From: Acutalibacteraceae bacterium
GTDB taxonomy: Bacteria; Bacillota; Clostridia; Oscillospirales; Acutalibacteraceae
Reading direction: 5' to 3'
Assembly: GCA_045534855.1 (NCBI GenBank)
Contig: JAZSKL010000002.1
Location: 1-30,113, forward strand
DNA length: 30,113 nucleotides
Shown: one piece after another, positions 5,842 to 30,113 of the stretch
Numbering within the stretch: the first letter of the stretch is position 1
How the letters are laid out: each line of letters opens with the position of its first letter
Program-made: the position numbers and the translations under genes
The notes under the pieces: generated by a model
Seen by the model: the letters and a program-made list of their open reading frames with translations, nothing else
The model's database searches: none
What the model was told of the DNA's origin: nothing

Positions 5842-6618
5842 ATGGCTAACAAAGAAAACATTAACAAGGAATATTATACGATAGACCTGTTACATATTGC
5901 AAAAAGTATGTGGAAACGGGCTTGGCTTATAGCTGTATCTGCCTTTCTTTCGGCAGTAATAGGCTTTTGTATTTCGGCATTTTTAATTGCACCAACCTAT
6001 TCATCATCAATTATGCTTTATGTTAATAACAGTTCTTTTTCACTCGGTAATACAAGCTTCAGTATAAGCTCTTCTGAAATAACAGCCGCACAAAGTCTTG
6101 TAAAAACCTACGGCGAAATTTTGAATAACCGTACAACATTAGAGCGTGTTATTGAAAAAGCAGATGTTGATTATACCTATCGCGAGCTTTCTGATATGAT
6201 AGTTGCCACCCCTTCAAACGAAACCGAGATTATGAAGGTTACTGTAACTACTGAAGACCCGAAAGAATCCGAAAGAATAGCCGATTGCATTGCAGAGGTG
6301 CTTCCCATAAGAATCGCTGAGATTATTGACGGTGCTTCTATGGAGGTTGTTGACTCGGCGGTTGCAGAATACGAAAAGGTAGCCCCAAGTATAACTAAAT
6401 ATACCGCTGTAGGTATGTTTTTAGGTGTTTTGATTTCAGCACTCGGAGTAATAGTTGCAGCATTACTTGATGATACTATACATGATGATGACTATATTTT
6501 AAGAACCTACGATTACCCCATCCTTGCAAAAATCCCCAATCTTTTAAATGTTTCTAACAAACAATACTCATATTATTCAGATAGCAAGAGTAATAGCAAC
6601 AATAAAAAAAGCACATAA
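5842..6618 (+). CDS. cpsC: Polysaccharide co-polymerase / chain-length regulator (CpsC/Wzz/YveK-like)
   Basis: Starts YYTIDLLHIAKSMWKRAWLI, has two TM segments flanking an extracellular loop, PTYSSSIMLYV and VAPSITKYTAVG motifs, and precedes a BY-kinase. Confidence 0.9.
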   Translation: MANKENINKEYYTIDLLHIAKSMWKRAWLIAVSAFLSAVIGFCISAFLIAPTYSSSIMLYVNNSSFSLGNTSFSISSSEITAAQSLVKTYGEILNNRTTLERVIEKADVDYTYRELSDMIVATPSNETEIMKVTVTTEDPKESERIADCIAEVLPIRIAEIIDGASMEVVDSAVAEYEKVAPSITKYTAVGMFLGVLISALGVIVAALLDDTIHDDDYILRTYDYPILAKIPNLLNVSNKQYSYYSDSKSNSNNKKST

Positions 6619-6638: not shown

Positions 6639-7394
6639 ATGTCATTTCTTCATAAGAGGCGTTCAGCCACATTTTTTACCCACAATGAAAATTCCAAAAC
6701 ACTTCATAAAAACCTCGAATTTACCGCAACAGAGCAATATAAGCTTTTAAGAACAAATCTTGAGTTCACCCTACCCGAGGGCGATACCTGCCCTGTAATA
6801 GGTGTTACAAGCTCTATGCGTGGCGAAGGAAAAAGTACAACAGCCATAAACCTTTCGTATGTACTTGCAGAAAAAGGCAATCGTGTACTTTTGATTGACG
6901 GTGACCTGCGTATTCCTTCGGTAGCTAAAAAATTAGAAATCGAAAGTAATCCGGGTCTTACCGACCTGCTTATGGGTAAAGGTGCGCAAATCGGTGATTT
7001 TCAATCGCAGATTTTAACTAACTGGTACATACTTCCCTCCGGAAGTATCCCACCAAACCCTTCGGAGCTTCTCGGTTCAAGAAGAATGGAGGCTATTCTT
7101 CTTGATTTAAGGAATAAGTTTGATTATATTATCATCGACCTGCCCCCCGTTAACCTTGTATCCGATGCGCTTTCCATATCAAACCTCATCAGCGGTATGA
7201 TAGTTGTAATACGCGAAGATTATACCGAAAAGAAAGAATTGGAATACTGCTTCAGGCAATTAAAGCTTTCTGAAACCAATATTTTAGGTTGTGTAATGAA
7301 TGAAGCAAAATCCGGCAACACTTCTTACGCTAAATACAAAAAATATAAATACTATAAGTATTATCAAAGCCGGTCCGCAAAAGAAAATGTATGA
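6639..7394 (+). CDS. cpsD: CpsD/CapB-family bacterial tyrosine kinase
   Basis: EQYKLLRTNL, Walker A GEGKSTT, A' LIDGDLR, PPNPSELL, Walker B IIIDLPP and a C-terminal tyrosine cluster. Confidence 0.93.
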   Translation: MSFLHKRRSATFFTHNENSKTLHKNLEFTATEQYKLLRTNLEFTLPEGDTCPVIGVTSSMRGEGKSTTAINLSYVLAEKGNRVLLIDGDLRIPSVAKKLEIESNPGLTDLLMGKGAQIGDFQSQILTNWYILPSGSIPPNPSELLGSRRMEAILLDLRNKFDYIIIDLPPVNLVSDALSISNLISGMIVVIREDYTEKKELEYCFRQLKLSETNILGCVMNEAKSGNTSYAKYKKYKYYKYYQSRSAKENV

Positions 7395-8080
7395 TAGATT
7401 GGCATAGTCATATATTACCCGCTGTTGATGACGGCAGTAAGGATATCAAGGAAAGCCTTGCTCTTTTAAGGTTGCTTGCAAATCAAGGATGTGATATCTG
7501 CATAGCCACACCTCACTTTTTCGCTAATGACGAAACTGTTGATAAGTTTTTAGAACGCAGACAAACAGCTTTTGAAAGCATCCAACCCGTTCTTTTCAAA
7601 AAAGCGCCCAAAATTTATCTCGGTGCCGAAGTAAAGTATTATAACGGAATAAGCCGAATGCAAGACCTTGAAAAGCTTAAAATCCAAAACACAAAAAATC
7701 TGCTTTTAGAAATGCCTTTTTCTAAATGGACTGAATATACTTTAAGAGAGCTTGATGAACTTTCTCGAACAAAAAGCTTTAAAATAGTATTGGCTCATAT
7801 CGAAAGATACCTCAACTTCCAAAACGCAGACACATTTGAACGCCTTTTGGAAAACGGTATTCTGATGCAAGCAAATGCAGGTTTTTTCAACGGTTTTTCA
7901 ACTCGCCGAAAGGCGGTTTCAATGTTGGGTAATTCGCAAATACATTTTATCGGTTCTGATTGCCACAACACCTCTTCTCGTCAACCGCAAATAGGTAGTG
8001 CCTACAAAATTATTGAAAAAAAATTAGGCACAGAATTTGTTAATCAGTTTAATGAGTACGGTTACTCCGTACTGTTATAA
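7391..8080 (+). CDS. cpsB: CpsB/CapC PHP-family tyrosine phosphatase
   Basis: DWHSHILPAVDDGS, ATPHF, LAHIERY, GSDCH; 4-nt overlap with cpsD. Confidence 0.92.
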   Translation: MIDWHSHILPAVDDGSKDIKESLALLRLLANQGCDICIATPHFFANDETVDKFLERRQTAFESIQPVLFKKAPKIYLGAEVKYYNGISRMQDLEKLKIQNTKNLLLEMPFSKWTEYTLRELDELSRTKSFKIVLAHIERYLNFQNADTFERLLENGILMQANAGFFNGFSTRRKAVSMLGNSQIHFIGSDCHNTSSRQPQIGSAYKIIEKKLGTEFVNQFNEYGYSVLL

Positions 8081-8769: not shown

Positions 8770-9750
8770 ATGAAACGCTTGCGAGGACACTCCAAAAAGC
8801 TTTTGGCCCGTCTTCTTATCGCAATTTTAACCTTTTCTATCATCACAACTCTTACCTCCTGTAAGGAAGACGCAGAAAAGTTTTCTAATACGGATTTTAA
8901 CGATTATACTATTGAATACGGCGGCAAGGAATATTCACCAAAGAGCAATGTTGAGACCTTTTTGGTTTTAGGACTTGATAAATTCGAGGATTCATCCGCC
9001 GATATTTCTTATAACAACGATAAACAGGCTGATTTTTTGCTGTTGTTTGTTCTTGATAACAACAGCAAAAAATGTACCGCGGTTCATATCAACCGTGACA
9101 CTATGGCTGATATGAATATTTTGGGTGTTGCAGGACAGAAAATAGATACCGTTAAAAAGCAGATAGCTTTAGCTCACACCTACGGTAACGGTGATAAAAC
9201 GAGTTGCAGGAATACGGCAGATGCAGTATCCGGTATTTTGCACGGTATTAAAATCGACCATTATATCTCATTGACCCTTGACTCGGTTGCTGTTTTAAAT
9301 GACCTTGCAGGCGGTGTTGAAGTAACGGTTTTAGATGATTTTACCGGTATAGACGATACTTTGAAAAAAGGGCAGACCGTAACCCTATTCGGAGAGCATG
9401 CACTACGCTATGTACGTACCCGTTACGGACTTGACGACAGTAGCAACAATACCCGTATGGCACGTCAGAAACAGTATCTCAACGCGCTTTACGCAAAGGT
9501 TAAAAAGCTTGTTGAGCAGGACGAGGAGTTTATTGTAGATGCCTCATTAAAGATGTCCGATTATATTGTATCTGACCGCTCGGTTAACCGATTGCAGGAG
9601 CTTGCCCAAAAAATTACCACCTATGAATTCTGTGGTATAAAGGATATAGAAGGCAAAACGATTATGGGAGAAAAATATGTAGAATTTTATCCCGATGAAA
9701 ACTCTACCAGAAAATTAGTTATAAGCCTTTTGTACCAACCTAAAAAATAA
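8770..9750 (+). CDS. LCP (LytR-CpsA-Psr) family glycopolymer transferase with a lipoprotein-type signal
   Basis: FLVLGLD, QADFLLL, HINRDT, IALAHTYG, ALRYVRTR and RMARQKQYL motifs. Lipobox LTSC has its Cys at 8860-8862. Confidence 0.88.
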   Translation: MKRLRGHSKKLLARLLIAILTFSIITTLTSCKEDAEKFSNTDFNDYTIEYGGKEYSPKSNVETFLVLGLDKFEDSSADISYNNDKQADFLLLFVLDNNSKKCTAVHINRDTMADMNILGVAGQKIDTVKKQIALAHTYGNGDKTSCRNTADAVSGILHGIKIDHYISLTLDSVAVLNDLAGGVEVTVLDDFTGIDDTLKKGQTVTLFGEHALRYVRTRYGLDDSSNNTRMARQKQYLNALYAKVKKLVEQDEEFIVDASLKMSDYIVSDRSVNRLQELAQKITTYEFCGIKDIEGKTIMGEKYVEFYPDENSTRKLVISLLYQPKK

Positions 9751-9807: not shown

Positions 9808-10515
9808 TTGAACAGTAATGCGAATACCGTGACACAAGATAATATTTCTGAATCCCCCGTAAAAACCCCACAAACCGAAAATATAACATTAACCCCACAA
9901 AGCCGAAGAGTTGCTTATCGCTTTTTTAAGCGCAGCTTTGATATCATCTTTTCTGCTTTGGGACTTATTGTTTTGTTTATTCCGCTTATTATTGTATCGT
10001 TGATAATTATAATAGACAGTCCCGGTGCTTCGCCTATTTACGTTCAAAAAAGAGTAGGCAAAAACGGAAAAGAATTTAAGTTTTATAAATTCCGTTCAAT
10101 GATTCCCAATGCCGAAAAATTATTAGACGGGCTTCTTGATAAAAATGAGGTTGAAGGTCCGGCATTTAAAATAAAAAACGACCCGAGAATTACTCGTTTT
10201 GGTCGTATTATACGCCGTTCAAGCATTGATGAGCTGCCACAGCTTTGGAATGTTTTAAAGGGTGATATGAGCCTTGTAGGTCCCCGTCCCCCGTTACCGA
10301 GAGAGGTTAAAATGTATAACGAGTACCAGCTCCAGCGTTTATTGGTTACTCCGGGTATTACCTGCTATTGGCAGATACAGCCTCGAAGAAACAGCTTTTC
10401 ATTTGATGAATGGCTTGAGTTTGATTTAAAGTACATAAAAGAACGCTGTTTTAAAACCGATTTAAAAATTCTTCTTAAAACCGTTTGTGCTGTATGCGGC
10501 TTGGAGGGCGAATAA
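9808..10515 (+). CDS. Priming sugar-1-phosphate transferase (Bac_transf domain only)
   Basis: FKRSFDIIFS, KFRSM, DPRITRFG, SIDELPQLWNVLKGDMSLVGPRP and PGITCYWQI; TTG start behind AAGGGG. Confidence 0.93.
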   Translation: MNSNANTVTQDNISESPVKTPQTENITLTPQSRRVAYRFFKRSFDIIFSALGLIVLFIPLIIVSLIIIIDSPGASPIYVQKRVGKNGKEFKFYKFRSMIPNAEKLLDGLLDKNEVEGPAFKIKNDPRITRFGRIIRRSSIDELPQLWNVLKGDMSLVGPRPPLPREVKMYNEYQLQRLLVTPGITCYWQIQPRRNSFSFDEWLEFDLKYIKERCFKTDLKILLKTVCAVCGLEGE

Positions 10516-11702
10516 TGCCTAAAAAGCCAAAAGATAAGCTTAAAATTGCCATGCTTGGTCATAAGCGCATCCCCTCAAGAGAGGGAGGCGTTGAAGTAGT
10601 TGTTGAACAGCTTTCTACACGTATGACCGGATTGGGACATTCGGTGACCTGCTATAACCGTAAAGGTCACCATGTAAGCGGTGCAGACTTTGACACTGCT
10701 ATTACTAAAGAATACAAAGGCGTAAGACTAAAAAATGTTTGGACTCTTGATAAAAAGGGTCTTGCTGCAATGACATCATCATTTTCTGCTGCTGTTTTGG
10801 CAGCTTTCGGAAAATATGATGTCGTTCATTTCCATGCCGAAGGTCCTTGCGCTATGCTTTGGTTCACAAAGCTTTTTCGTAAAAAATGCATAGCTACTAT
10901 ACACGGTCTTGATCACCAAAGAGCTAAATGGGGAAAATTCGCTTCATGGTATATCCGTTTCGGCGAAAGATGTGCTGCACATTTTGCTGATGAAGTAATT
11001 GTTCTCAGTAAAAATGTGCAGAATTATTTTATGGAAAAATACGGCAGAGAAACGGTGTTTATTCCAAATGGAGTTACTGCACCAAATACCGAAAATGCCG
11101 AAATTATAACCGACCTTTATTCCCTTAATCGGGATTCTTATATTCTGTATCTCGGGCGTCTTGTTCCCGAGAAAGGCGTTGAATATTTAATTGACGCATT
11201 TGCCGAAACCCAAACCGATAAAAAGCTTGTTATAGCAGGCGGTTCATCCGATACCGCAGAATATGAAAAACTGCTTAAATTAAAAGCCGAAAAGGACAGC
11301 CGTATAATATTCACCGGTTTTGTTGAGGGTAAAACACTTGATGAGCTTTACAGCAATGCCTACATATATGTTTTACCAAGCGACCTTGAGGGTATGCCTT
11401 TAAGCCTTTTGGAGGCTATGAGCTACGGCAACTGCTGCCTAACTTCAGATATTGAGGAATGTGCAAGCGTTATAGAGGAATACGGTATTACATTCCGCAA
11501 AGGCGATATAAACGACCTGAAATCAAAGCTTCAGATGCTTTGCGACAATACTGATACCGTAAACAAATTCAAATCCCAAGCATCTGAATACATTAGCCAA
11601 AAATATAATTGGGACGATGTAACAAGCAAAACACTTGCTTTATACGGTGTTCCTGCTGCCGCCATGGAGGAAAAACAAAATGAAAGTATTGCTCATAAAT
11701 AA
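10515..11702 (+). CDS. Glycosyltransferase family 4
   Basis: KIAMLGHKRIPSREGGVE, YLGRLVPEKG and EGMPLSLLE (E-x7-E). Start at ATG 10515 overlaps the upstream TAA (TAATG). Confidence 0.92.
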   Translation: MPKKPKDKLKIAMLGHKRIPSREGGVEVVVEQLSTRMTGLGHSVTCYNRKGHHVSGADFDTAITKEYKGVRLKNVWTLDKKGLAAMTSSFSAAVLAAFGKYDVVHFHAEGPCAMLWFTKLFRKKCIATIHGLDHQRAKWGKFASWYIRFGERCAAHFADEVIVLSKNVQNYFMEKYGRETVFIPNGVTAPNTENAEIITDLYSLNRDSYILYLGRLVPEKGVEYLIDAFAETQTDKKLVIAGGSSDTAEYEKLLKLKAEKDSRIIFTGFVEGKTLDELYSNAYIYVLPSDLEGMPLSLLEAMSYGNCCLTSDIEECASVIEEYGITFRKGDINDLKSKLQMLCDNTDTVNKFKSQASEYISQKYNWDDVTSKTLALYGVPAAAMEEKQNESIAHK

Positions 11703-12885
11703 ATTCCTTTATCCCAAAGGCGGTTCTGAAACCTATCTTTTCAAATTAGGTGAGCTTTTAAGCGAGCGCGGGCACGAGGTTCAGTATTTCGGTATGGAAC
11801 ATGAGGGAAGAATTGTTGGCAACCGCGTAAACTCATATACTGTGGATATGGATTTTCATGGAGGAAGCAAACTTTCAAAACTCACCTACCCCATTAAAAC
11901 CATATATTCATCACAAGCGCGAAAAAAAATTCGTGCCGTACTTGATGATTTTAAACCCGATGTTTGCCACCTTAATAATTTTAATTTTCAGTTAACCCCA
12001 AGCATTATTTTAGAAATTGTTAAATGGCGCAAAAAAGCAAAACAAAAATGCAAAATTATTTATACCGCGCATGACAGTCAGCTTGTTTGCCCAAATCACC
12101 TTATGCAAAATCCCGTAACGGGCGAAACCTGCACCAGATGCTTAGGCGGTCATTTTAAGAACTGCGTAAGCGGTAAATGTATTCATTCCTCTTCGGCAAA
12201 AAGTTTTATCGGCGCTATGGAAGGATACTTCTGGAAGCTTAAGGGTACATATAAGTATTTTGATGCAATAATTTCTCCGAGCGCATTTTTAAGCGAGAAA
12301 CTTTCAACAAATTCTGTTTTGAAAGAAAAAATCACCGTTTTAAATAATTTTATTGAACATACTTCTTTGGATGAAAACAATATCCAAAAATCAGATTATA
12401 TAATTTACTACGGCAGATACTCAAAAGAAAAAGGCATTGAAACCCTTTTAAAGGTAGTAGACCGCCTGCCGGATATACAATTTGTTTTTGCAGGAAACGG
12501 CCCGCTTGAGGATGAAGTAAACAAGCGCAAAAACATCATTAACAAAGGTTTTTTGTTGGGAGATAACCTTAAAAAAGTTATTTCAGAAGCGCGTTTTACC
12601 GTGATGCCGTCTGAATGTTTTGAAAATTGCCCCTATTCGGTTATGGAAAGCCAGATTTACTTTACTCCCATAATCGGCGCAAACTTGGGCGGTATTCCCG
12701 AACTTATTAAAGAATCTGAAACGGGCGAGCTTTTTGAAAGCGGCAACGCCGAACAGCTTTATGAAAAGGTATTATCTCTTTGGAATAATGCCGAAAAGCT
12801 TAAAAAATATACCGAAAACTGCAAAAATGTAAAATTCATCAATGTTGATGAGTATTATACAAAATTACTTGATCTCTATTCATAA
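11680..12885 (+). CDS. Glycosyltransferase family 4
   Basis: MKVLLINKFLYPKGGSE, YYGRYSKEKG and ENCPYSVME. ATG 11680 behind GGAGG; overlaps the upstream gene by 23 nt. Confidence 0.92.
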   Translation: MKVLLINKFLYPKGGSETYLFKLGELLSERGHEVQYFGMEHEGRIVGNRVNSYTVDMDFHGGSKLSKLTYPIKTIYSSQARKKIRAVLDDFKPDVCHLNNFNFQLTPSIILEIVKWRKKAKQKCKIIYTAHDSQLVCPNHLMQNPVTGETCTRCLGGHFKNCVSGKCIHSSSAKSFIGAMEGYFWKLKGTYKYFDAIISPSAFLSEKLSTNSVLKEKITVLNNFIEHTSLDENNIQKSDYIIYYGRYSKEKGIETLLKVVDRLPDIQFVFAGNGPLEDEVNKRKNIINKGFLLGDNLKKVISEARFTVMPSECFENCPYSVMESQIYFTPIIGANLGGIPELIKESETGELFESGNAEQLYEKVLSLWNNAEKLKKYTENCKNVKFINVDEYYTKLLDLYS

Positions 12886-12898
12886 AGAGGTGGATTTT

Positions 12899-13924
12899 TT
12901 GGAAAATAAAAGGGAGTACTGGGTAGATAATTTAAAGGTTTTTGCCTGCATTTTAGTTGTACTTGGGCATTTTTTTCAAAGTATGCGTTCTTCGGGAATT
13001 ATGTCTTACTCCCCTGCTGCGCTTTGGTTTGACAAAACGATCTACTTTTTCCATGTGCCTGTGTTTTTTATCTGCAGCGGGTATTTATATCAGAAATTAT
13101 GCAACACTACCACCCTTAACGGTTGGAAGAATAATATTTTCAAAAAGATTATTTCATTAGGTATTCCTTATGTTGTTTTTTCTGTAGCAACCTGGTGCTT
13201 AAAAACATTGTTTGCTGATTCTGTAAATCAAAAGGTTGATAATATATTCACCTCTTTGTTTATAAAGCCTATTTCGCCATATTGGTATTTATATGCGCTT
13301 TTCTTTATGTTTTTTATAATACCAACCTTTAAAAATAAATATACCGCACTCGTTGGTATTTTAATCGCGTTGGCACTGAAAATAATAACTTTTACCCCAC
13401 TAATATCCGATATATATTCCTTAACTATAATTTTTGAAAATTTGATATGGTTTGTTGCAGGAATGAGCATATATTCATTCGGCGCTGATATGAAAATGAA
13501 AAATAATATTCATCTTTCATTAAGTCTTGTATCGGTTTTCGCTTTTATACTTTCAAGCGTTTTACTTAAAATTTACAACATCGAGCATAGTGTAATCAGC
13601 TTTGCAATGGGAATACTTGGCTGTTTTGCTTTTGTTTTACTTTTCAAAGAGCTTCAAAGATTCAATTTTTTAAACAAGCTGTTTTCCTATTGCGCTAAAT
13701 ATACTTTACCCATATTTTTAATGCACACGATTTTTGCCGCTGCTTTAAGAGCTGTCTTAAATAAAGTAGGCTTAACATCATCCGTAATTCATTTTACGCT
13801 TGGTTTATTTATAAGCTTTTTAGGGCCGGTAATCGCAGCATTTATAATGTCAAAAATTAAATTTTCGGACTTTATTCTATACCCTAACAAATATATAAAA
13901 ACCGCTAAAAAAGAGGGAAAATAA
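12899..13924 (+). CDS. Acyltransferase family 3 (probable polysaccharide O-acetyltransferase)
   Basis: WVDNLKVFACILVVLGH, FHVPVFFICSGY, PYWYLYAL and IFLMH motifs, about 10 TM segments. TTG 12899 behind GAGGTG is the more plausible start. Confidence 0.88.
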   Translation: MENKREYWVDNLKVFACILVVLGHFFQSMRSSGIMSYSPAALWFDKTIYFFHVPVFFICSGYLYQKLCNTTTLNGWKNNIFKKIISLGIPYVVFSVATWCLKTLFADSVNQKVDNIFTSLFIKPISPYWYLYALFFMFFIIPTFKNKYTALVGILIALALKIITFTPLISDIYSLTIIFENLIWFVAGMSIYSFGADMKMKNNIHLSLSLVSVFAFILSSVLLKIYNIEHSVISFAMGILGCFAFVLLFKELQRFNFLNKLFSYCAKYTLPIFLMHTIFAAALRAVLNKVGLTSSVIHFTLGLFISFLGPVIAAFIMSKIKFSDFILYPNKYIKTAKKEGK

Positions 13925-15012: not shown

Positions 15013-15028
15013 CCGATTGGGTGGCATA

Positions 15029-19260: not shown

Positions 19261-19271
19261 CGGAGCAGGCT

Positions 19272-19466: not shown

Positions 19467-19498
19467 TACTCCCTTTAAAAACCGAGGTCATAAATTAA

Positions 19499-21593: not shown

Positions 21594-21609
21594 TTTACAA
21601 AAAATTACG

Positions 21610-21638
21610 TTGTATTTAGTGCGTATTTATGTTAGAAT
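21610..21638 (+). promoter_or_regulatory. Putative sigma-A promoter with extended -10 for the giant protein gene
   Basis: TTGTAT (21610-21615), 17 nt, TGt-TAGAAT (21633-21638). No terminator hairpin seen after licD. Confidence 0.55.
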
Positions 21639-21721
21639 ATTATAAGAAATTACATATACATTAAAAAGAGCTATAATGGTGTATATGATTATATAAATTT
21701 TAAAAAAATGGAGGATGAATT

Positions 21722-24700
21722 ATGATTAAAAAATTCAGCAAAAGATTATTGCCTGTATTATTGGCAATAATGCTACTCTTATCCACTATGCCGCTTGGTA
21801 TGATTTCCTCGGCAGCAACTACGCTTACCTTACTCGACGGTGCAGTTACTGTTACAGATTCAAACGGTACAGGCAAACTTTCAAATGGTGTTGTAACAAT
21901 TACAGCTACAGGTTCTATCATTTCTAAAAAAACCAATAGTATTACAATCACCAATGAAACCAGCTCAAAATCAAATCTTTCTTTCGACTATACTACTACA
22001 TACGCAAATTCCTTTAAAATCGCAGGCGTATCCGAAAATGCATCAGGTTCTTACAGCGTTATATTAGAAAGTGGCGCTTCTCTTTCGATAGAAATAGTAT
22101 CAAACTCCGGTTTGAGCAATAGAACTGCAACGCTAAATTTAAGTAATTTAAGTTTAGCTGCTGCTGCTGATTCTTCAAATGTTACCTTTGAATATAACAG
22201 TACATACGGAAGTATTACAGTTGATGGTGCTGCAACCTCTAATGGTGATGTTTTAAATATACTACTCAGCGGTGCCACTCTCGCTGCCACTCCGGTTAGC
22301 GGTGCTCAATTCTTAGGTTGGGTAAATGCAAAAGATAATTCTGTTATTTCTTCTGAATTATCTTATCACTATCAACCGTCCCAAGACATAACCATTAAGG
22401 CTATATTTATAGGTGCTGATTCCGAACCGTACTTTATGATAGGTGCCATATCTACCAGTACCTTTAGCTACGGTTTTTTATCAACACAAAAAGCAACCAT
22501 TTACTCTGTTCCATCCGCTGCATATATTTTTGATAATCTCAACGATGCCGCTAATGCCAGCGCTGCAAGTGCAAACCATAAAGCAATTGTTCTTTTAAAC
22601 AGTTCAACATTACCGGCCGGTGATTATACTATTCCCGCAGGTGTTACATTACTTATACCATTTAACAATACAAACTCGTTGTATAAAACAAATCCCGAAT
22701 TTGAGCTAGGCTCAAATTACAAAGCACCTACTGTATACCGTACCCTTACTTTAGCAGATGGAGCCAACCTTATTATTAACGGTGAAATGAGTCTGTCTGC
22801 AAAGCAGGCTACTGCACAAGGAAGCCGTAAAAACGGTGGTTCACCAACCGGCGATATCAGTATAGTAAAAATGGAGGGTGACAGCTCCATCACCATTAAC
22901 AATGGTGCTACTCTTTATACTTATGGCTTTATAACCGGTTCGGGTTCTGTTATCGCTAAAAACGGTGGTAGCGTTTATGAAAACTTCCAGATAATGGACT
23001 TCCGCGGCGGTACACAAGCAACCCAAATGAAAAACGGCGTTTTCCCGATTTCCCAGTACTATATTCAAAACATTGAAGTTCCGCTAACTCTTGAGTATGG
23101 TTCAAAGGAATATAGCACAGCTGCTATTACTATGAGTGGTTATGATATATCTACTGCGGTTAATTTTATAGGTCCAAGCAACTGTATGTTTGACCTTACT
23201 GCAGGTAGTGTTACCAAGTATTATGACGGCTCTTCTGACCGCTTGTACATAGAGCTTAACGGCGATATGTCTATCTCAACTATCAAAATGGATCTGGGTT
23301 TAAGCTCACTTGATTCTGAAGAATTTGAGCTTCCTATCAATGGTAATATTTCCGTTAATGTTAAAACCGGAAGCAATATTTCCGTTTCGCAGGATGTTGC
23401 TATGCTCCCCGGTGCAGAAATTAACATTGATGAGGGTGCTACCTGCAAATTAAACAAAGGCTATAACATTTACCTTTATGATGCAGATTCTTGGGGTAAC
23501 TACTGTGCTCCTGCCAATGTTAAACTTATCCCCGTTGAATATGCACCGGGTAAAACCTATACCCGTACCGAAGCCGAACTTGTTGATGCTAAAATCGTAA
23601 TTGACGGTTATATAGATGCTTCTGAAGGTTATGTATATTCCACTAATGGCGGTGCAAACATATACAGTAACGGAACAGGCGTTGCAAAAGTGCAAGCCGG
23701 TACACAAAAAGTTACTTATCAAGTAACACAAATGAAAGAGGTATCTGACTCCGTATATACCCCAATCACAATAGAACCCGTATGGCTCAAAAATGCTGAT
23801 GGTACGTTCTTATATTCCGGCACAGATACCTACACCTATGAGAATGGTAAGTGGGTTTGCACAAACCATACAACCGTTACCGATGCAGCCGTTGAACCCA
23901 CCTGTACCAATACCGGTCTTACAGAAGGTTCGCACTGCTCTGCCTGCGGTATGGTAGAAGTTGAACAAATTGAAATAGGAGCAACCGGTCACGAATATTC
24001 CTCAAGCATTACTACCGAACCCACCTGCGATAATTCAGGAGTTTTGACCTATACCTGCAACACCTGCGGCGACAGTTATGAAGAAGTTATCGCTCCTACA
24101 GGTCATAAGGAATATACATCCGAAATCACAACCCAGCCCGGTTGCGAAACCGAGGGTGTTACAACCTTTACATGCACCGACTGCGGTCATACCTACACCG
24201 AGCCTATTGCTCCGTTAGGTCACAGCTATACTTCAAGTATAACAACCCAACCCGGTTGTGAAACTGAGGGTGTTACAACCTGGACTTGCGGCACATGTGG
24301 TCACAGCTACACCGAGGCTATCCCAGCTAACGGTCACGATTACAGCATTATAAATGTAATCGCTCCCACCTGTACTACAAACGGCCATACAACACATACC
24401 TGTGCAGTTTGCGGTGACAGCTACAAGGATACCGTAACTTCTGCTACCGGCCACAGCTATGGCGATTGGGTAATTATTACCGCTCCTACTTGTGAAGGCA
24501 CCGGCAGCGAGCAAAAGGTTTGCGCTACTTGCGGCGATGTACAAACACAGGTTATTGATGCTAATGGTCACAGCTACTCCGATGAATTTACCGTTGATGT
24601 TGAGGCTACCGATGTTACAGCAGGTTCTAAATCAAAGCATTGCGCTAACTGCGACAGCACTACCGATGTTACCGTAATTCCCGCAAAAACAAACTTTACC

Positions 24701-27700
24701 GCTGATATCAGCGATACCGCTACAATTAACGGCTATACCGGTGATATAAACGGCACTATTACAATTCCTACAACACTTAACGGTGTTGCGGTTGCCGCTA
24801 TTACAGATGATGCTTTCAGCGGCAAGGACATTCAGTTTGTTCTTTATGACGGCACTATTGCACAATGGAAAAATATTTCTGTTAATACAGCAGTTGCTTT
24901 CCCGAATGCTAAAATAGTTTACCTCGGCGAAACAGTAGGCGATGCTGATGTAAACGGCACAGTTGATGCTTACGATGCAGTTGCTTTAAGAAATATAATA
25001 CTTGGTAATACAACAGTTACCGAAGTTACCGCATATACAGCCGATACCACAGGTGACGGTAAGGTAAATGTTAAGGATTTGGTTCGCTTAAAGAAGCATT
25101 TGGCTGATGAAAACATTTATATGGGAATTAACTATTCCGCTCCTATAGTTCAATCCTTTTCATTAAATCGTTATAACAGTTCTGCAAATCAGGTTGCTAC
25201 GCTTTACAGCGTAGCAACTGTTGCAAACGCAGAGCCTGAAATAAATGATTACGAATCTTTCTTATTCAATCTTGCACTTTTAGAAGAAGTTGCGTATGTA
25301 TATACCACAGAAGTAAAGCCAGGTGCTGACCCGCTTGACCTTGTTATTAAATACGTTCGTACCGGTGTTGACCGCTATAACAGCGGTTCTTGGGAAATTA
25401 TGGCAGGTAAAGAAGATACTCAATTTGCCGAATTCCTTATTATGTTACAAGACGGCATCAATGCGGAAGCTACCTGTGAAGAAGAAAAAATTCATATTGA
25501 TGCTTTAAAAAATATTAACAACTTCTACCTTCCCAACGGTGACTGGGCAGACCTCGGTCATATGTTCGGCACAATGGATATAACCTACCATAATAAAGGC
25601 AGCCAAAACCATGCCGATGTTGGCGGTTGGGCAGGTGACCTTGTTGACCTTTTAGAGCTTTCCGATATTAAAGGTGTTTCAGGCGATCTTGAAACAATGG
25701 TTACAGATATCCGCAAAAACTACCTTGGAAAAAACTTATCTGACCCCGGTTTACCCAGCTTTAGCAATACCGATATTTATGGCGATATTGATGCATTCTA
25801 TGTAATGAAGAATCTTTATGCTCAAAAATATGAGTTCGGCGTTTTAACCGGAATCATTATGGAATATTTCACCGAGGATCTTGATAACGAGTTCCGTGCA
25901 GAGTATTTACTTGAAAACCGTCTTGGTACAACAGGTACACGCGCTCAAATCCGCGATGCTGTTTATACCGAGTACACCACAAACAAGGTTATTTCTACAC
26001 TTGAGGGCACAAGAGAGTTTACTTCAAGCGATCTTCCCACATTAAGACGTGCTTGCTGTTATGCATTTGCAGATTACCTTTGCGAGCTTGCAGGTGACTA
26101 TGTTGACAGCATTTCAAACCCCTATTTAAGCGTTTTCTCAAATAATATTACAAGCATCGCTCCCGGTGTTACACAGGAAATCAAGTATGCAACCTCCGCT
26201 GACAACAAGCAGATGGTATACTATGTTGCAACCGCTGATATTACAAGAAGCGATGTTGATGTATTTGCAAACTACAATGAAAACGACCCCTCAAAGGGTT
26301 GGGAGCTTTCCCGTGTTCTTGATCAGGCAAATGCCGCACAGGAAAAGTACGGAAATCCCGAAAGCCCCTACTACATTGAAAATTACAATGTAGTAGCAAG
26401 TACAAACGGCGCAGGCTTCAATATGGCTACAGGTGAGCCGGGCGGCTTGCTTGTTATGGGCGGTGTTGAATACCAATCCATAAATTCTAACGGATTTTTC
26501 GGTATTTTAAAAGACGGTACACCCGTTATAGGCACTACCGAAGAATACAAAACCATTTACAAAGGCAAGGTTAGAGACGGTATTGCAGCCTTTGGCGATA
26601 CCCTTGTTAAAGACGGTAAGATAGTTACTACAAATAATTCCGGCCGTGCAAGCCGTACTGCTGTTGGTATAACAAAGACCGGCAAAGTAGTTCTTATGGT
26701 ACTTGATGGCCGTCAGGAGCCTGTTTCCTGCGGCGGAAGTATGTTAGAAATAGCTCAGATTATGCTTGATGCAGGCTGTGTTCACGCTGTAAACCTTGAT
26801 GGCGGCGGTTCTACCACCTATGTTGCAAAGCCTGTTGGTTCTGATGAGCTTGCAGTTGTAAATAAGCCTTCTGACGGCTATGCTCGTTCTGTAAGTACCT
26901 CTCTTATGATCGTTTCCACCGCACCGAGCTCTACCAAGTTCGATCATGCAGTTCTTAATACAGAATATGATTATCTCACAATCGGAACAAGCATTAAAGT
27001 AACTCCCGTAGGAGTAAGCGCTACAGGTAATGTTACCGATCTTCCCGAAGGTACCTCTTGGGCTGTTTCCGATACTCGTTGGGCAACTATTTCCGAAGAT
27101 GGCATATTAACCGCTAAGAGAAATGGTACTATAACCATTAACCTTATGCTTGGTGAAGAAATCATCGGAACAAGAACTATTGATATTGTTACTCCGCAAA
27201 ACCTCTACTTTACAAAAACTAACTTAAATGCTGTTTACGGTGCAAATATAACACTTCCTGTTGTTGCTCTTTATAACAATCAGCCGGTTGCTATAAACGC
27301 AAATGACATTGTATTTACACCTAACAACAACGCAGGTACTGTTAACAACTTTGTATTTGTAGGCAATGAAGTTTCAGGTATAAAGGTTGTAAATATTACC
27401 GCAAGTCTTGCTGCAAATCCCGATATGACAGCAACTGTTAATATCAACCTCTACAAGCAAGGCGAAACCACATTTGACTTTGATCAAGCAACAGGCGGCG
27501 ACCGCGAACTTGCTTGGGATCGTCAAGTATCCAACTCAACAACACTTGACGGTATCACCTATACCGCAGTTGATACCGACAGCAAAATGGTAACCTCTTA
27601 TATCGTTGCTATCGATATGACTACCATTTCTATCCCCCCTGTACTTAACGACCTTCTTTATATGCTCCCCGGTGCCGATGTTGAAGGCGCTTCCGCTTGG

Positions 27701-30113
27701 TCATTCCTTTGCCAGTTGGCAGAGCGTATAAGCGATCTTAGTGTTGTTTCTGCCAAACTTAAATTCGACCCGAATTTTGATGTTGATTACTCTGAGCTTA
27801 AGCTCATAAATGAGTATTTCAATCTTGAAGAGGCTATTTTCGATGCCGAAACCAACACCCTTACAGTAAACCTCAGATGGATTAAACAAACAAAGGCTAT
27901 TGACCTTGATGTTGCTAACCCGATATGCATAGTTAACGGTATTAAGCTTACTCCGAAATCTGATGCTGACTGGGGTGCAAAAAACAGCTTAACCGTTGAA
28001 AATACAGGTAACATAGGCTACCAAATTTATATGCGTGCAAGCGCTCTTTACAGCTTTGCACAAAAGCCTGAAAATCAAGAAACATACGGCATTTATCCTT
28101 ATTCTAACCCCAATCTTTCTTCTGATTCAGGCGGTTACTTCGAGTACACCTACAAGGAATTCTATGATACATATACCCTCGTAAACAAAACAAAGAACGG
28201 CTGGGCTAACGAAGACGGCGCATTTGTTTATTATGTCGAAGGCGAAAAGCTTACCGGCGTTAAAATGGTAGATGGCTACTATTATGACTTCGGTACTAAC
28301 GGTAAAAACGCAGGTCAAACCAAGTATACAGGCGTATTCTTTGATGAAACCGCTAACGCTTACCGTTATTCAAAGCTTGGCGAAATTGCTACAGGTTGGC
28401 AAACCATAAACGGCGAGTGGTATCATTTCAATGCAACCACAACAAACGCTACTACCGGCAAAGTTAAGATGTATGGTGTTTACTACACCTTCGAAGAAAC
28501 CGGTAAACTTACCACAGGTGTTTGGGGTAAGACCTTCCAGGGTACACGCTATTACTACGGCCCCAGCTACTACGCTAAGGGTTGGTACAATATTGATGGT
28601 GTTGACTACTTCTTCAAAAACGGCTACCGTTGCGAGGGAATAGACTACCATAAGGCTTCCGCAGCTCCTACTTACTGGTATGACTTTGGTCCTGACGGTT
28701 CAACCGCTACCCGTCTTAACGGTATTTACTTCATCGAAGGCGAATATCGCTACTTTGAGGACGGTCTTGCAACCGAAAAGCACCTCTTTAAATTTGGCAA
28801 CGATTACTACTACTCCGTTTATAACGGCGTAATCGTAACCAACAAAACCTTAAATACAGCTTCTACAAATTGCGATATGCCTAAGGGCACATACACATTC
28901 GGCCCTGACGGTAAGATGTTAGGTTCCAACCCCAACGGTGAAATCGTTGAGTTTGATGGCGAGCTTTACTACTACGAAAGCGGTAAGGGCGTTGAAAAGT
29001 ACCTTGTAAAGGTTGACGGCGAATACTACTTTGCTCAATATAAGGGTAAGCTTGTAACTAACCAGACCATTAACGCATTTGCTACCAACTGTGATATGCC
29101 TAAGGGTACTTACACATTCGGTCCTGACGGCAAAATGTTAGGCTCAAGTGCTGAAGGAGAAATTGTTGAGTTTGAGGGCGAGCTTTACTATTACGAAAGC
29201 GGTAAGGGCGTTGAAAAGGGTCTTGTTAAGGTTAATGGTGACTATTACTTTGCTCTTTACAAAGGTAAAATACTCACCAACAAGATTTATAAGACCTATA
29301 TGACCAACTGTGATCTTCCGAACGGTCGTTATGAGTTCGGCGCAGACGGCAAGATGCTCCAGGGTATCGTTAATAAAGACGGTGTTCTCTACTACTACGA
29401 AAACGGTAATGGTGTTGAAAAGGGTCTTATCAAATACGGCGATGACTACTACTTCACTCTCTATCAGGGTAAGATTCTCACCAACAAGATTTACAGCACT
29501 TATATGACCAACTGCGATCTTCCAAACGGTCGTTATGAGTTCGGCGCAGACGGTAAGATGCTCCAAGGTATCGTTAACAAGGATGGCGTTCTTTACTACT
29601 ACGAAAACGGTAAGGGCGTTGAAAAAGGTCTTATCAAATACGGTGATGACTACTACTTCACACTTTATCAAGGTAAGATTCTTACCAATAAGATTTACAA
29701 AACCTATTTAACCAACTGCGATCTCCCGAACGGCCGTTATGAGTTTGGCGCAGACGGTAAAATGCTCAACGGCATTGTTGAAAAAGAAGACGGTTTATAC
29801 TTCTACCACAATGGTGTGGGCGCTGAGCGCGGTTTGTTTGAATATGAGGGTAACTACTACTTTGCTTCTTACCAAGGCAAGTTGGTTGTAGGTAAATCTT
29901 ACAAGGCTTATGCTACAAGCTGCGATTTACCTGTTGGTACTTATGAATTCGGTGCAGACGGTAAGATGCTCAACGGATTTGTTGAAAAAGAAGATGGCAT
30001 CTACTTGTATTACAATGGTCAGGCATCCGCGCGCGGCTTCTTTGAGTTTGAGGGTGACTACTACTTCTCATCTTACAAGGGCAAGATAGTAACCAACAAG
30101 GTTTACAAAGCTT
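21722..30113 (+). CDS. Giant secreted multidomain surface protein with a phosphodiester glycosidase domain (at least 2797 aa, 3' end beyond the window)
   Basis: ATG 21722 behind GGAGGA, signal peptide MIKKFSKRLLPVLLAIMLLLSTMPLGMISSA. Translated by hand in one frame to the window end (...YFSSYKGKIVTNKVYKA) with no stop seen. Absent from the ORF track, consistent with no stop codon. Confidence 0.93.
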   Translation, partial: MIKKFSKRLLPVLLAIMLLLSTMPLGMISSAATTLTLLDGAVTVTDSNGTGKLSNGVVTITATGSIISKKTNSITITNETSSKSNLSFDYTTTYANSFKIAGVSENASGSYSVILESGASLSIEIVSNSGLSNRTATLNLSNLSLAAAADSSNVTFEYNSTYGSITVDGAATSNGDVLNILLSGATLAATPVSGAQFLGWVNAKDNSVISSELSYHYQPSQDITIKAIFIGADSEPYFMIGAISTSTFSYGFLSTQKATIYSVPSAAYIFDNLNDAANASAASANHKAIVLLNSSTLPAGDYTIPAGVTLLIPFNNTNSLYKTNPEFELGSNYKAPTVYRTLTLADGANLIINGEMSLSAKQATAQGSRKNGGSPTGDISIVKMEGDSSITINNGATLYTYGFITGSGSVIAKNGGSVYENFQIMDFRGGTQATQMKNGVFPISQYYIQNIEVPLTLEYGSKEYSTAAITMSGYDISTAVNFIGPSNCMFDLTAGSVTKYYDGSSDRLYIELNGDMSISTIKMDLGLSSLDSEEFELPINGNISVNVKTGSNISVSQDVAMLPGAEINIDEGATCKLNKGYNIYLYDADSWGNYCAPANVKLIPVEYAPGKTYTRTEAELVDAKIVIDGYIDASEGYVYSTNGGANIYSNGTGVAKVQAGTQKVTYQVTQMKEVSDSVYTPITIEPVWLKNADGTFLYSGTDTYTYENGKWVCTNHTTVTDAAVEPTCTNTGLTEGSHCSACGMVEVEQIEIGATGHEYSSSITTEPTCDNSGVLTYTCNTCGDSYEEVIAPTGHKEYTSEITTQPGCETEGVTTFTCTDCGHTYTEPIAPLGHSYTSSITTQPGCETEGVTTWTCGTCGHSYTEAIPANGHDYSIINVIAPTCTTNGHTTHTCAVCGDSYKDTVTSATGHSYGDWVIITAPTCEGTGSEQKVCATCGDVQTQVIDANGHSYSDEFTVDVEATDVTAGSKSKHCANCDSTTDVTVIPAKTNFTADISDTATINGYTGDINGTITIPTTLNGVAVAAITDDAFSGKDIQFVLYDGTIAQWKNISVNTAVAFPNAKIVYLGETVGDADVNGTVDAYDAVALRNIILGNTTVTEVTAYTADTTGDGKVNVKDLVRLKKHLADENIYMGINYSAPIVQSFSLNRYNSSANQVATLYSVATVANAEPEINDYESFLFNLALLEEVAYVYTTEVKPGADPLDLVIKYVRTGVDRYNSGSWEIMAGKEDTQFAEFLIMLQDGINAEATCEEEKIHIDALKNINNFYLPNGDWADLGHMFGTMDITYHNKGSQNHADVGGWAGDLVDLLELSDIKGVSGDLETMVTDIRKNYLGKNLSDPGLPSFSNTDIYGDIDAFYVMKNLYAQKYEFGVLTGIIMEYFTEDLDNEFRAEYLLENRLGTTGTRAQIRDAVYTEYTTNKVISTLEGTREFTSSDLPTLRRACCYAFADYLCELAGDYVDSISNPYLSVFSNNITSIAPGVTQEIKYATSADNKQMVYYVATADITRSDVDVFANYNENDPSKGWELSRVLDQANAAQEKYGNPESPYYIENYNVVASTNGAGFNMATGEPGGLLVMGGVEYQSINSNGFFGILKDGTPVIGTTEEYKTIYKGKVRDGIAAFGDTLVKDGKIVTTNNSGRASRTAVGITKTGKVVLMVLDGRQEPVSCGGSMLEIAQIMLDAGCVHAVNLDGGGSTTYVAKPVGSDELAVVNKPSDGYARSVSTSLMIVSTAPSSTKFDHAVLNTEYDYLTIGTSIKVTPVGVSATGNVTDLPEGTSWAVSDTRWATISEDGILTAKRNGTITINLMLGEEIIGTRTIDIVTPQNLYFTKTNLNAVYGANITLPVVALYNNQPVAINANDIVFTPNNNAGTVNNFVFVGNEVSGIKVVNITASLAANPDMTATVNINLYKQGETTFDFDQATGGDRELAWDRQVSNSTTLDGITYTAVDTDSKMVTSYIVAIDMTTISIPPVLNDLLYMLPGADVEGASAWSFLCQLAERISDLSVVSAKLKFDPNFDVDYSELKLINEYFNLEEAIFDAETNTLTVNLRWIKQTKAIDLDVANPICIVNGIKLTPKSDADWGAKNSLTVENTGNIGYQIYMRASALYSFAQKPENQETYGIYPYSNPNLSSDSGGYFEYTYKEFYDTYTLVNKTKNGWANEDGAFVYYVEGEKLTGVKMVDGYYYDFGTNGKNAGQTKYTGVFFDETANAYRYSKLGEIATGWQTINGEWYHFNATTTNATTGKVKMYGVYYTFEETGKLTTGVWGKTFQGTRYYYGPSYYAKGWYNIDGVDYFFKNGYRCEGIDYHKASAAPTYWYDFGPDGSTATRLNGIYFIEGEYRYFEDGLATEKHLFKFGNDYYYSVYNGVIVTNKTLNTASTNCDMPKGTYTFGPDGKMLGSNPNGEIVEFDGELYYYESGKGVEKYLVKVDGEYYFAQYKGKLVTNQTINAFATNCDMPKGTYTFGPDGKMLGSSAEGEIVEFEGELYYYESGKGVEKGLVKVNGDYYFALYKGKILTNKIYKTYMTNCDLPNGRYEFGADGKMLQGIVNKDGVLYYYENGNGVEKGLIKYGDDYYFTLYQGKILTNKIYSTYMTNCDLPNGRYEFGADGKMLQGIVNKDGVLYYYENGKGVEKGLIKYGDDYYFTLYQGKILTNKIYKTYLTNCDLPNGRYEFGADGKMLNGIVEKEDGLYFYHNGVGAERGLFEYEGNYYFASYQGKLVVGKSYKAYATSCDLPVGTYEFGADGKMLNGFVEKEDGIYLYYNGQASARGFFEFEGDYYFSSYKGKIVTNKVYKA
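23858..24685 (+). repeat. Seven tandem Cys/His repeats of about 38-39 aa in the giant protein
   Basis: Consensus H-x-Y-x(6-8)-P-T/G-C-x3-G-x5-C-x2-C-G-x(10-13)-GH, e.g. GHSYTSSITTQPGCETEGVTTWTCGTCGHSYTEAIPANGH. The first unit is longer and the last lacks the first Cys. Confidence 0.9.
24938..25105 (+). other. Type I dockerin domain inside the giant protein (about aa 1073-1128)
   Basis: Two Ca-binding loop-helix repeats: GDADVNGTVDAYDAVALRNIILG and ADTTGDGKVNVKDLVRLKKHLA. Confidence 0.85.
26156..26917 (+). other. Phosphodiester glycosidase (NAGPA/DUF2233, PF09992-like) domain in the giant protein
   Basis: IAPGV, STNGAGF, SRTAVG, LMVLDGRQ, AVNLDGGGST (NLDGGGST at 26792-26815) and NKPSDG..RSV, in the family's order. 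Confidence 0.9.
26945..27190 (+). other. Ig-like (Big_2-type) domain following the NAGPA domain
   Basis: SWAVSDTRWATISEDGILTAKRNGTITI resembles the W-x-S-S-D...A-x-V...G-x-V-T-A Big_2 pattern. Confidence 0.6.
28196..30113 (+). repeat. C-terminal aromatic/Gly beta-hairpin repeats (cell-wall/choline-binding-like), including 73- and 68-aa super-repeats with T(N/S)CD(L/M)P
   Basis: GWxxxxGxWYxF-type units from 28196. Repeat Cys codons at 28871, 29090, 29309, 29513, 29717 and 29921 give periods of 219, 219, 204, 204 and 204 nt; the array runs off the window. Confidence 0.9.

Follow-up and report, generated by a model that had tools for sequence, protein, structure and literature searches.

A giant predicted surface protein with TelC-like and NAGPA domains in a Wzx/Wzy-type capsule locus of an Acutalibacteraceae bacterium

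Introduction

We describe a gene for a giant secreted protein in a 30,113-nt stretch of DNA from an Acutalibacteraceae bacterium (GCA_045534855.1, contig JAZSKL010000002.1, positions 1 to 30,113; hereafter the window), where it accompanies a Wzx/Wzy-type capsular polysaccharide (cps) locus. By its sequence, the product is a predicted Sec-exported surface protein, docked to the wall by choline-binding-type repeats and belonging to the family that combines a TelC-like domain with a NAGPA phosphodiester glycosidase domain. The gene very probably lies between wzy and wzx. We see an even chance that the giant edits or releases the polymer of its own locus at the sugar-1-phosphate or undecaprenyl-pyrophosphate (Und-PP) anchor. 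The protein adds a member to a family already described computationally; the embedding in the operon and a dockerin fusion go beyond the main text of that description. The finding is comparative and computational.

In Gram-positive bacteria, the switch from capsule to released exopolysaccharide (EPS) and the fate of polymer stuck on the scarce undecaprenyl carrier are poorly understood, and a conserved pair of predicted extracellular enzymes encoded between wzy and wzx is a concrete candidate for an anchor-cutting step. The bearers are mostly uncultured gut and rumen Oscillospiraceae and Acutalibacteraceae. Synteny gives a specific reason to re-examine the sole published interpretation of the family, inter-bacterial conflict, and the natural fusion links a dockerin-ended β-helix protein to the enzyme module.

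The enzyme core

An earlier note on this DNA had reported that an open reading frame (ORF) encodes a secreted protein of 2797 aa or more, in which it saw an intact-looking NAGPA domain and wall-binding-like repeats; all three features were borne out. The ORF (21722-30112, plus strand) encodes 2797 aa, starts with a signal-peptide-like N-terminus and is still open at the contig end; the window is the entire contig C202 of a fragmented metagenome-assembled genome (MAG; 1.83 Mb in 325 contigs, 77.5% complete), so that the ORF is truncated by the assembly. The domains of the giant are listed in Table 1. Two of its parts, a second catalytic-looking domain that is TelC-like and a β-helix N-module, were absent from the earlier note.

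The core region (aa 1160-1740) was modelled from a 42-sequence alignment with a predicted local distance difference test (pLDDT) score of 90.4. The NAGPA half matched 3OHG (Z 31.9) and vertebrate NAGPA (Z ∼ 25), with a Foldseek E of 1e-16. Its Pfam envelope spans aa 1555-1730 (nt 26384-26911; E 1.7e-35), and at the level of the fold the domain covers ∼ 26108-26923, which revises the limits of 26156-26917 given in the earlier note. The domain keeps D1693-GGGS-1697 and R1722, an arginine at the spacing of human R316. In human NAGPA the invariant DGGGS loop carries the catalytic aspartate and R316 binds phosphate (PMC13474241). The fold (Z 25-32), the DGGGS loop and the R316-spaced arginine are thus common to the giant, the vertebrate enzyme (EC 3.1.4.45; 6PKY, 6PKU, 6PKG) and the Bacteroides DUF2233 protein (3OHG). 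The giant differs from vertebrate NAGPA in being bacterial and, by prediction, extracellular, in sharing only ∼ 23% identity with it, and in having Gln in place of the phosphate-contacting Thr260.

The N-terminal half of the core model (residues 15-299) is all-helical. In an exhaustive structure search (VIA; 48,161 chains) the sole match of this half to rise above background was TelC (5ukh_A), with a Z of 10.1 over 205 residues; the second row of the whole list scored 4.9, and the runner-up for the helical part scored 3.8. Foldseek, run on the two-domain core model, did not find TelC, and the structural match comes from the exhaustive VIA search only. The profile of the core family returned 5UKH as its best non-NAGPA match (E 0.0065). 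In the alignment, the conserved residues of the helical half are H1280, D1299/W1303/D1306/D1309, D1351/D1355/D1357 and the arginines 1392, 1411 and 1442; they form the motifs GHMFG (with H1280), ADxGGWAGDxVD and DxYGDxD, the last with an Asp pair six residues apart. These His/Asp motifs match the TelC-family signature given in section 12 of the Lipocone paper (10.1101/2025.01.14.632903). The assignment of the helical domain as TelC-like has moderate support. The resemblance to S. intermedius TelC (5UKH), a lipid II phosphatase toxin, comprises the helical Lipocone fold, the conserved His/Asp residues and the second Asp six residues on. TelC works on the outer side of the membrane, and the giant is also extracellular by its predicted Sec export. 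The two differ in that identity is 16% and that the giant is wall-docked and NAGPA-fused, has no conserved small gene adjoining it and lacks an LXG/type VII secretion system (T7SS) delivery domain, for which it has a Sec-type signal peptide instead.

A TelC-like domain before NAGPA places the giant in the "prok-TelC + NAGPA" family of Bacillota. Burroughs, Nicastro and Aravind described such giants from spore-forming Bacillota, with Ig and cell-wall-binding domains around the core, and read them as conflict systems (Lipocone superfamily, 10.1101/2025.01.14.632903, section 31). Our protein is like theirs in the order of the core domains, the Ig-like and wall-binding repeats, the variable binding modules and its nature as a very large secreted protein of Clostridia. 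It differs in that its gene lies between wzy and wzx and that a dockerin-ended β-helix partner is fused to it. The main text of that paper makes no mention of Wzx, LicD, Stealth or LCP context or of a dockerin fusion. The statement in the earlier note that no such system was described nevertheless has to be withdrawn, as the protein family is described there and enzymes acting on the polymer of their own EPS operon are known (AlgL, PslG, WceF).

Position inside the operon

The ORFs between 5842 and 21593 are all on the plus strand and together form a Wzx/Wzy-type capsule locus (Table 1). LCP, CpsB, Wzz/CpsC, CpsD, the priming transferase and the glycosyltransferases are assigned by Pfam, and both the LCP and the LicD gene named in the earlier note are present. 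A 431-aa multi-pass membrane protein without a Pfam or NCBIfam match is probably the Wzy polymerase, judging from its translation; the window itself has no flippase gene.

The earlier note had the giant gene following the operon, 128 nt downstream of LicD on the same strand with no visible terminator. Strand and distance hold, and a scan of the spacer (21594-21721) found no terminator-like site; the gene, however, lies inside the operon rather than behind it, since wzx is found downstream. In the relatives G010, G007, G026, G024 and G149 a Polysacc_synt flippase gene comes after the giant orthologue in the same orientation. Contig C84 of the same assembly (locus L058, 1-4264, minus strand) carries, in this order, the final 47 codons of an ORF with wall-binding repeats, the gene of a 445-aa Wzx and that of a 443-aa phosphatase-like protein. 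Across these 47 residues, identity with the very C-terminus (aa 2845-2891) of the L059 giant is 70%. L059 is the locus of the nearest public relative; the core of its giant is 87% identical to ours, and the 2797 aa of the window are collinear with residues 1-2801 of that protein. The Wzx and the phosphatase of C84 are 78% and 67% identical to the genes downstream of the L059 giant. On these matches C84 very probably continues the window, which would give a giant of ∼ 2,890 aa, with ∼ 43 codons of repeat missing between the two contigs, and the gene order Wzy-LicD-[giant]-Wzx-phosphatase.

A core-alignment scan of species-representative genomes returned 201 places. Eighty were kept, and the 65 with at least two other genes were informative. 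The core falls into more than 100 clusters at 50% identity; the 80 places belong nearly all to Oscillospiraceae, Acutalibacteraceae or unclassified Clostridia MAGs, with few other family labels, and many come from goat, sheep or deer gut. Capsule markers were present in 47 of the 65 informative loci by a strict and in 52 by a loose definition, usually in the order Wzy-[giant]-Wzx. The immediate 3′ neighbour was Wzx in 20 of 58 loci and the immediate 5′ neighbour Wzy or LicD in 21 of 52; in ∼ 24 loci other than ours a probable Wzy lay directly 5′ of the giant or one gene earlier, with LicD or an unassigned ORF between. All four close orthologues with usable context were directly downstream of a homologous cps locus. 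As a control, the same seeds were applied to 20-40 kb around 12 further large NAGPA genes from the same order that lack the TelC-like domain, and no capsule marker turned up at any of them. Random placement relative to cps loci, which the earlier note had named as refuting its coupled system, is thus not what the giants show. NAGPA as such is common, occurring in 122 of 151 genomes of the order, and the cps link is therefore a specific feature of this subfamily, one in which a few shorter NAGPA-only proteins beside LicD (G031, G149, G005) share. In a quick tree of the core the cps context appears on both sides of the midpoint root, with at least nine changes, and is hence not a quirk of one lineage.

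A predicted anchor-cutting role

TelC cleaves lipid II where its undecaprenol meets the diphosphate (10.1101/2025.01.14.632903), and NAGPA cleaves between the anomeric carbon and the phosphate (10.1101/2025.01.14.632903, PMC13474241). Together, the two prototypes would attack either side of a carrier-PP-sugar or sugar-1-phosphate linkage. This chemistry is expected at the reducing end of each polymer that such a locus makes, in a linkage unit that would be Und-PP-sugar before the action of LCP and sugar-1-P-6-MurNAc (N-acetylmuramic acid) after it; the priming transferase would build the unit and LCP would move it to peptidoglycan. Between species, identity is 62% for the core, 59% for LCP and 56% for the priming transferase (Bac_transf), compared with 39-42% for the N-module and the wall-binding repeats and 27-40% for Wzy and the glycosyltransferases. 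Conservation of the core thus tracks the 5′ module of the locus and that of the N-module and repeats tracks Wzy and the glycosyltransferases, a pattern that fits a division of labour. The variable N-module and repeats would bring the conserved core to the locus polymer of its own cell, and the core would cut this polymer loose from the lipid or the peptidoglycan to which it is anchored or strip sugar-1-phosphate decorations from it. As an outcome, bound capsule would become released or remodelled polymer and stalled lipid-linked intermediates would be cleared, with the giant acting as an optional accessory and not as a biosynthetic step. We favour this cutting or editing of the cell's own polymer because both bonds lie at the linkage unit and because of the conservation pattern of the modules. 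The cps synteny, the place inside the operon, the fusion of the N-module and the lack of a conserved small immunity-like gene beside the giant in the surveyed loci also speak for it. The occurrence of NAGPA domains in predicted gut-phage endolysins likewise suggests a wall-located class of substrate.

A surface enzyme that edits its own wall polymer has precedent in Pce/CbpE, the pneumococcal phosphorylcholine esterase, which carries choline-binding repeats and edits a phosphodiester on the LicD-decorated wall polymer of its own cell. The predicted action of the giant is similar in that the enzyme is held at the surface by repeats, uses phosphodiester chemistry and would meet a LicD-type polymer; Pce, in contrast, is a small protein with a metallo-β-lactamase fold that cuts a phosphocholine ester, and its gene lies outside capsule operons. 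Secreted enzymes encoded in EPS operons also trim, epimerise or release their own polymer (WceF of Pantoea stewartii, PDB 6TGF; AlgG/AlgL; PslG). They act on glycosidic bonds within the chain, whereas the core of the giant is predicted to act on phosphate-linked anchors.

A broader claim, to which we attach only tentative belief, is that the TelC-like and NAGPA core serves Gram-positive Wzx/Wzy pathways as an extracellular enzyme dedicated to anchor cutting, severing finished polymer from undecaprenyl pyrophosphate or at the sugar-1-phosphate-MurNAc bond made by LCP, and that it supplies an optional, undescribed step of release or recycling (capsule versus shed EPS) in hundreds of gut Oscillospirales species. 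Were anchor cutting correct, the published interpretation as a weapon would be wrong for the cps-embedded members of the family.

Several observations weigh against anchor cutting on the cell's own polymer. The TelC match is a moderate one, since helical domains can reach a Z of ∼ 10 by chance, and family membership associates the giant with predicted enzymes known computationally. The loop that holds the GlcNAc-recognizing residues E226/T227 of human NAGPA aligns poorly to the bacterial sequences, and these residues are not mappable. The priming transferase appears to be of the hexose type and not the HexNAc type, its closest NCBIfam models being those of the EPS_sugtrans, WbaP, WcaJ and RfbP type. 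A wall-docked protein of 2,890 aa may not reach membrane-bound Und-PP intermediates. The giant gene probably has a promoter of its own: a scan found promoter-like sites at 21649-21677 and 21661-21689, and the 3′ ∼ 55 nt of the spacer, with TATGATTATATA and GGAGG, is conserved in the nearest relative L059, whereas the remaining spacer is not. No cps genes were nearby in 13 to 18 of the 65 loci, so the cps link is not obligatory. The sister locus L162 has the order rSAM...GT2-Wzy-Wzx-phosphatase without a giant, and the family of the order to which it belongs has no NAGPA at all. The polymer can thus be made and handled without the giant, which in the light of such sister loci is an optional insert between wzy and wzx and not a step of synthesis.

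The published reading of the family, inter-bacterial conflict, was drawn from the rapid shuffling of its binding domains (10.1101/2025.01.14.632903) and also counts against a role on the cell's own polymer. Applied to the giant, it makes the protein a competitor-directed weapon whose binding modules grip foreign Gram-positive cells and whose core destroys lipid II, lipid-linked precursors or the anchors of teichoic acid and capsule; the cps location would then reflect mere co-regulation or the recombination-prone nature of cps loci. Burroughs et al. class the family among conflict systems and found ligand-binding domains reshuffled between close species, and TelC is a toxin that degrades lipid II and works solely from outside the cell (10.1101/2025.01.14.632903). 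The fast evolution of the N-module and wall-binding repeats, the NAGPA domains of predicted phage endolysins, the loci that are not cps-linked and the dispensability of the giant for its locus all agree with a weapon. Its position between wzy and wzx is, however, conserved across the core tree, and the cps linkage is missing from the other large NAGPA proteins. Nor was a conserved small immunity-like gene found beside the giant in the surveyed loci, unlike the TelC-TipC pair, although no search with a TipC profile was made. In place of a delivery system such as T7SS/LXG the giant has a Sec signal and repeats that dock it to the wall, and a wall-docked giant is poorly placed to reach the membrane of another cell. 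We therefore regard a weapon as unlikely.

The fused N-module and wall-binding repeats

The N-module of the giant (Table 1) consists of a carbohydrate-binding module (CBM)-like β-sandwich, an InlB B-repeat, a right-handed parallel β-helix and Cys-rich repeats behind the signal peptide. A model of aa 31-730 has a pLDDT of 90.1. In the VIA search its CBM-like part matched CBMs with Z 7-10, and the β-helix matched autotransporter adhesins, phage tailspike capsule depolymerases, AlgG/AlgE4 and WceF with Z 8-12; Foldseek gave no significant match for the N-module model. As the β-helix match is generic and comes from VIA only, we make no claim for a depolymerase. The parallel β-helix is likewise a feature shared with WceF and AlgG, in the giant as a fold match only.

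In the relatives G010, G007 and G014 the N-module is unfused: it is a separate protein of 863-999 aa with a dockerin at its end, encoded just upstream, and the enzyme protein carries its own signal peptide. The N-module gene of G059 is found two genes downstream of the enzyme gene, where the contig end cuts it; no dockerin was detected there. In the giant of the window the dockerin stands exactly at the junction of the two modules, and the enzyme module has no signal peptide. By this comparison the giant is a separately encoded CBM/β-helix/Cys-rich/dockerin partner fused onto the front of the core. The dockerin at the junction and the lost signal peptide argue that the N-module and the enzyme module work together. 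Pfam, the sole method applied, found no cohesin in the enzyme module. Cohesin domains (PF00963; 44.9 and 31.3 bits) are encoded on contigs C235 and C58 of the same genome (loci L141 and L142), and a cohesin-dockerin system therefore exists that could receive dockerin proteins such as the unfused N-module of the relatives.

Behind the core lie Ig-like domains, an unassigned region of ∼ 265 aa (aa 1935-2200) and a ∼ 68-aa super-repeat that is evident from aa 2215 on. The stretch aa 1935-2225 had no Pfam match and no Atlas assignment, and we take an Atlas score of 0.81 there as no more than a lead. Pfam matches to the super-repeat are weak (Choline_bind_1 and Choline_bind_3, E 5e-5 to 1e-4): Choline_bind_1 scores 22.6 bits, just over the cut-off of 20.5, and Choline_bind_3 scores 23.6, under the cut-off of 27.

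These modules could also be read as those of a polymer-anchored adhesin or scaffold. The locus polysaccharide would then be the ligand of the C-terminal repeats, adhesion would take place via the CBM and β-helix, and the core would clear or remodel wall polymers locally so as to let the giant be inserted and displayed. In favour of this, the giant has wall-binding repeats, a CBM-like domain, Ig domains, a dockerin and a β-helix like those of adhesins and autotransporters, and the genome has cohesin genes. Genes for an anchor polymer are co-located with genes for the anchored proteins elsewhere, as in the case of csaB with sap/eag in B. anthracis and the cwp and PSII loci of C. difficile; phosphocholine teichoic acid is the ligand of choline-binding proteins, and pyruvylated secondary cell wall polymer (SCWP) is the ligand of S-layer homology (SLH) proteins. 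The core is, however, the most conserved part of the protein (62% versus 39-42%) and its catalytic motifs are intact, which points to catalysis as the selected function, and the β-helix match is a generic one. We consider an adhesin or scaffold quite unlikely. The giant has no SLH domain, despite the pyruvyl transferase encoded in the locus.

Candidate partner genes

LicD is directly 5′ of the giant in the window, in L059, G031 and G149, and 11 of the 65 informative loci have it. The loci of G010, G007, G014 and G026, the closest genus-level orthologues among them, lack it. LicD is thus not the conserved partner of the giant, and as an obligatory partner we rejected it; it is a frequent, non-obligatory neighbour. 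The top NCBIfam model for LicD of the window is a cholinephosphotransferase, at 70.9 bits well below the cut-off of 225, and a search of the genome (77.5% complete) found no choline kinase (PF01633). A further LicD-family gene of the same genome lies on contig C133 (3986-4645, minus strand; 130 bits).

Stealth, a bacterial relative of GNPTAB, is encoded one or two genes 3′ of the giant in G026 and G024 and in 9 of the 65 loci. It is rare (16 of 401 genomes), and no Stealth gene was found in the genome of the window. A general "cover and uncover" pair of Stealth and NAGPA was rejected, as none of the 15 other Stealth loci among the 401 genomes has a NAGPA gene within 10 kb. A dedicated two-step pathway of NAGPA and the extracytoplasmic protein tyrosine phosphatase (PTP)-like protein encoded on C84 is not supported; orthologous phosphatases occur in cps loci that lack a giant and in the family that lacks NAGPA.

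LicD here, or Stealth in the relatives, could nonetheless be the writer in a pair with NAGPA as eraser. The writer would add a phosphodiester-linked group and NAGPA would remove the sugar cap after export to leave a phosphomonoester, as in the GNPTAB/NAGPA pathway of mannose 6-phosphate. The placement of LicD directly upstream and of Stealth shortly downstream of the giant in some of the loci speaks for such a pair, as does the scarcity of Stealth overall. Against it stand the Stealth loci without a nearby NAGPA, the loci of the closest genus-level orthologues without LicD, and the majority of giant-bearing loci, which show neither gene within the flank. Moreover, the known products of LicD are phosphocholine or polyol-phosphate and not glycosyl phosphates, so that a NAGPA-type glycosidase could not cleave them. 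A write/erase pair is in our judgement very unlikely.

A VanZ gene, itself of the Lipocone superfamily, follows Wzx or Stealth 3′ of the giant in at least five loci (for example L021:10706-11173 and L059).

Other features of the locus and its flank

The features of the window and of C84 are collected in Table 1. Orthologues of the regulatory module (5842-8080) in the loci of relatives are 46-77% identical. The 210-aa protein whose gene separates cpsB from the LCP gene resembles a sortase substrate, its NCBIfam matches being restricted to LPXTG-type termini; proteins at the same position in G007, G014, G026 and G005 share 30-43% identity with it. The LCP protein scores 67.6 bits with NCBIfam TIGR00350 (cut-off 62.3).

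Table 1. Positions of predicted features in the window and on contig C84 (aa numbers refer to the giant protein)
Feature	Position	Strand	Evidence or remark
TIGR03960-family B12-binding radical SAM protein, cut by contig end	within 3-1412	-	upstream flank of the locus
MurR/RpiR-type regulator and major facilitator superfamily (MFS) organophosphate-type transporter	within 3-1412 / 3395-5532	- / +	upstream flank of the locus
ABC-F protein, ribosomal-protection type	1414-3381	-	NF000355 463.6 bits, cut-off 380
Wzz/CpsC-like chain-length protein	5842-6618	+	Pfam Wzz E 9.6e-16
CpsD-like tyrosine-kinase ATPase	6639-7394	+	Pfam AAA_31 E 4.9e-15
CpsB phosphatase	7391-8080	+	Pfam CpsB_CapC E 2.8e-43
Small secreted protein, 210 aa	8113-8745	+	C-terminal SPQTG, hydrophobic stretch, basic tail (translation)
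LCP (LytR-CpsA-Psr) glycopolymer-to-peptidoglycan phosphotransferase	8770-9750	+	Pfam LytR_cpsA_psr E 2.7e-22
Priming polyprenyl-phosphate hexose-1-phosphate transferase (Und-PP-sugar linkage unit)	9808-10515	+	Pfam Bac_transf E 4.6e-66
Glycosyltransferase (GT) family 4 (GT4)	10485-11702	+	Pfam
GT4	11635-12885	+	Pfam
Acyl_transf_3 acyltransferase	12842-13924	+	Pfam
Radical SAM (rSAM)/SPASM protein	13924-15012	+	Pfam
GT4	14963-16132	+	Pfam
GT2	16129-17169	+	Pfam
Pyruvyl transferase	17180-18235	+	Pfam
FrhB-like protein	18256-19260	+	Pfam
Multi-pass membrane protein, 431 aa, probable Wzy polymerase	19499-20794	+	strongly hydrophobic translation
LicD-family phosphotransferase	20745-21593	+	Pfam LicD E 1.3e-39
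LicD-giant spacer, 128 nt	21594-21721	+	promoter-like boxes, ribosome-binding site for the giant gene
N-module of the giant, whole	21722-24796	+	signal peptide, CBM-like, InlB B-repeat, β-helix, Cys-rich repeats; Pfam Flg_new_2 weak
Signal peptide	aa 1-31	+	signal-peptide-like N-terminus
CBM-like β-sandwich	∼ aa 31-150	+	predicted model of aa 31-730
InlB B-repeat	∼ aa 159-229	+	predicted model of aa 31-730
Right-handed parallel β-helix	∼ aa 260-720	+	predicted model of aa 31-730
Cys-rich ∼ 38-aa repeats	∼ aa 725-1025	+	114-nt tandem repeat at 24128-24337
Dockerin type I (aa 1073-1127), between N-module and enzyme module	24938-25102	+	Pfam Dockerin_1 E 9.1e-11
TelC-like Lipocone domain, putative (aa 1174-1458)	25241-26095	+	predicted model, structure and profile match
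NAGPA/DUF2233 phosphodiester glycosidase domain (aa 1463-1734, fold level)	26108-26923	+	Pfam E 1.7e-35, fold match
Ig-like (Big_2) domains (∼ aa 1740-1935)	within 26936-28321	+	Pfam Big_2 E 6.7e-4
Cell-wall-binding (choline-binding-type) ∼ 68-aa super-repeats, at least 8 copies, running off the contig	28364-30112	+	tandem repeats of 204-219 nt
Wzx flippase, 445 aa	C84 4087-2750	-	Pfam PF01943 73.4 bits
Single-pass membrane protein, 443 aa, with extracytoplasmic PTP-like CX5R domain	C84 2716-1385	-	Y_phosphatase3 in relatives
MFS-like transporter	C84 1378-137	-	next after the phosphatase-like gene

For the ABC-F protein of the upstream flank, identity with OptrA was considered and rejected: the OptrA model scored 660 bits, far below its cut-off of 1450, and we therefore call the protein an ABC-F relative.

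The radical SAM/SPASM protein is 80-89% identical (median 88%) in 16 loci of other species, and all neighbouring genes are 27-62% identical. It has no NCBIfam equivalog, its nearest models (peptide-maturase, NirJ and AhbD) all scoring far under their cut-offs. The pair of pyruvyl transferase and FrhB/FdhB-like genes (17180-19260, plus strand) recurs in the related loci L061, L115, L138 and L162 and suggests that the repeat unit is pyruvylated. G+C content is 32-36% in the block of glycosyltransferase, Wzy and LicD genes (window 12000-22000) and 40-46% in the giant gene (window 22000-30113) and at the contig's left end, a step that would fit horizontal exchange of a variable cps cassette.

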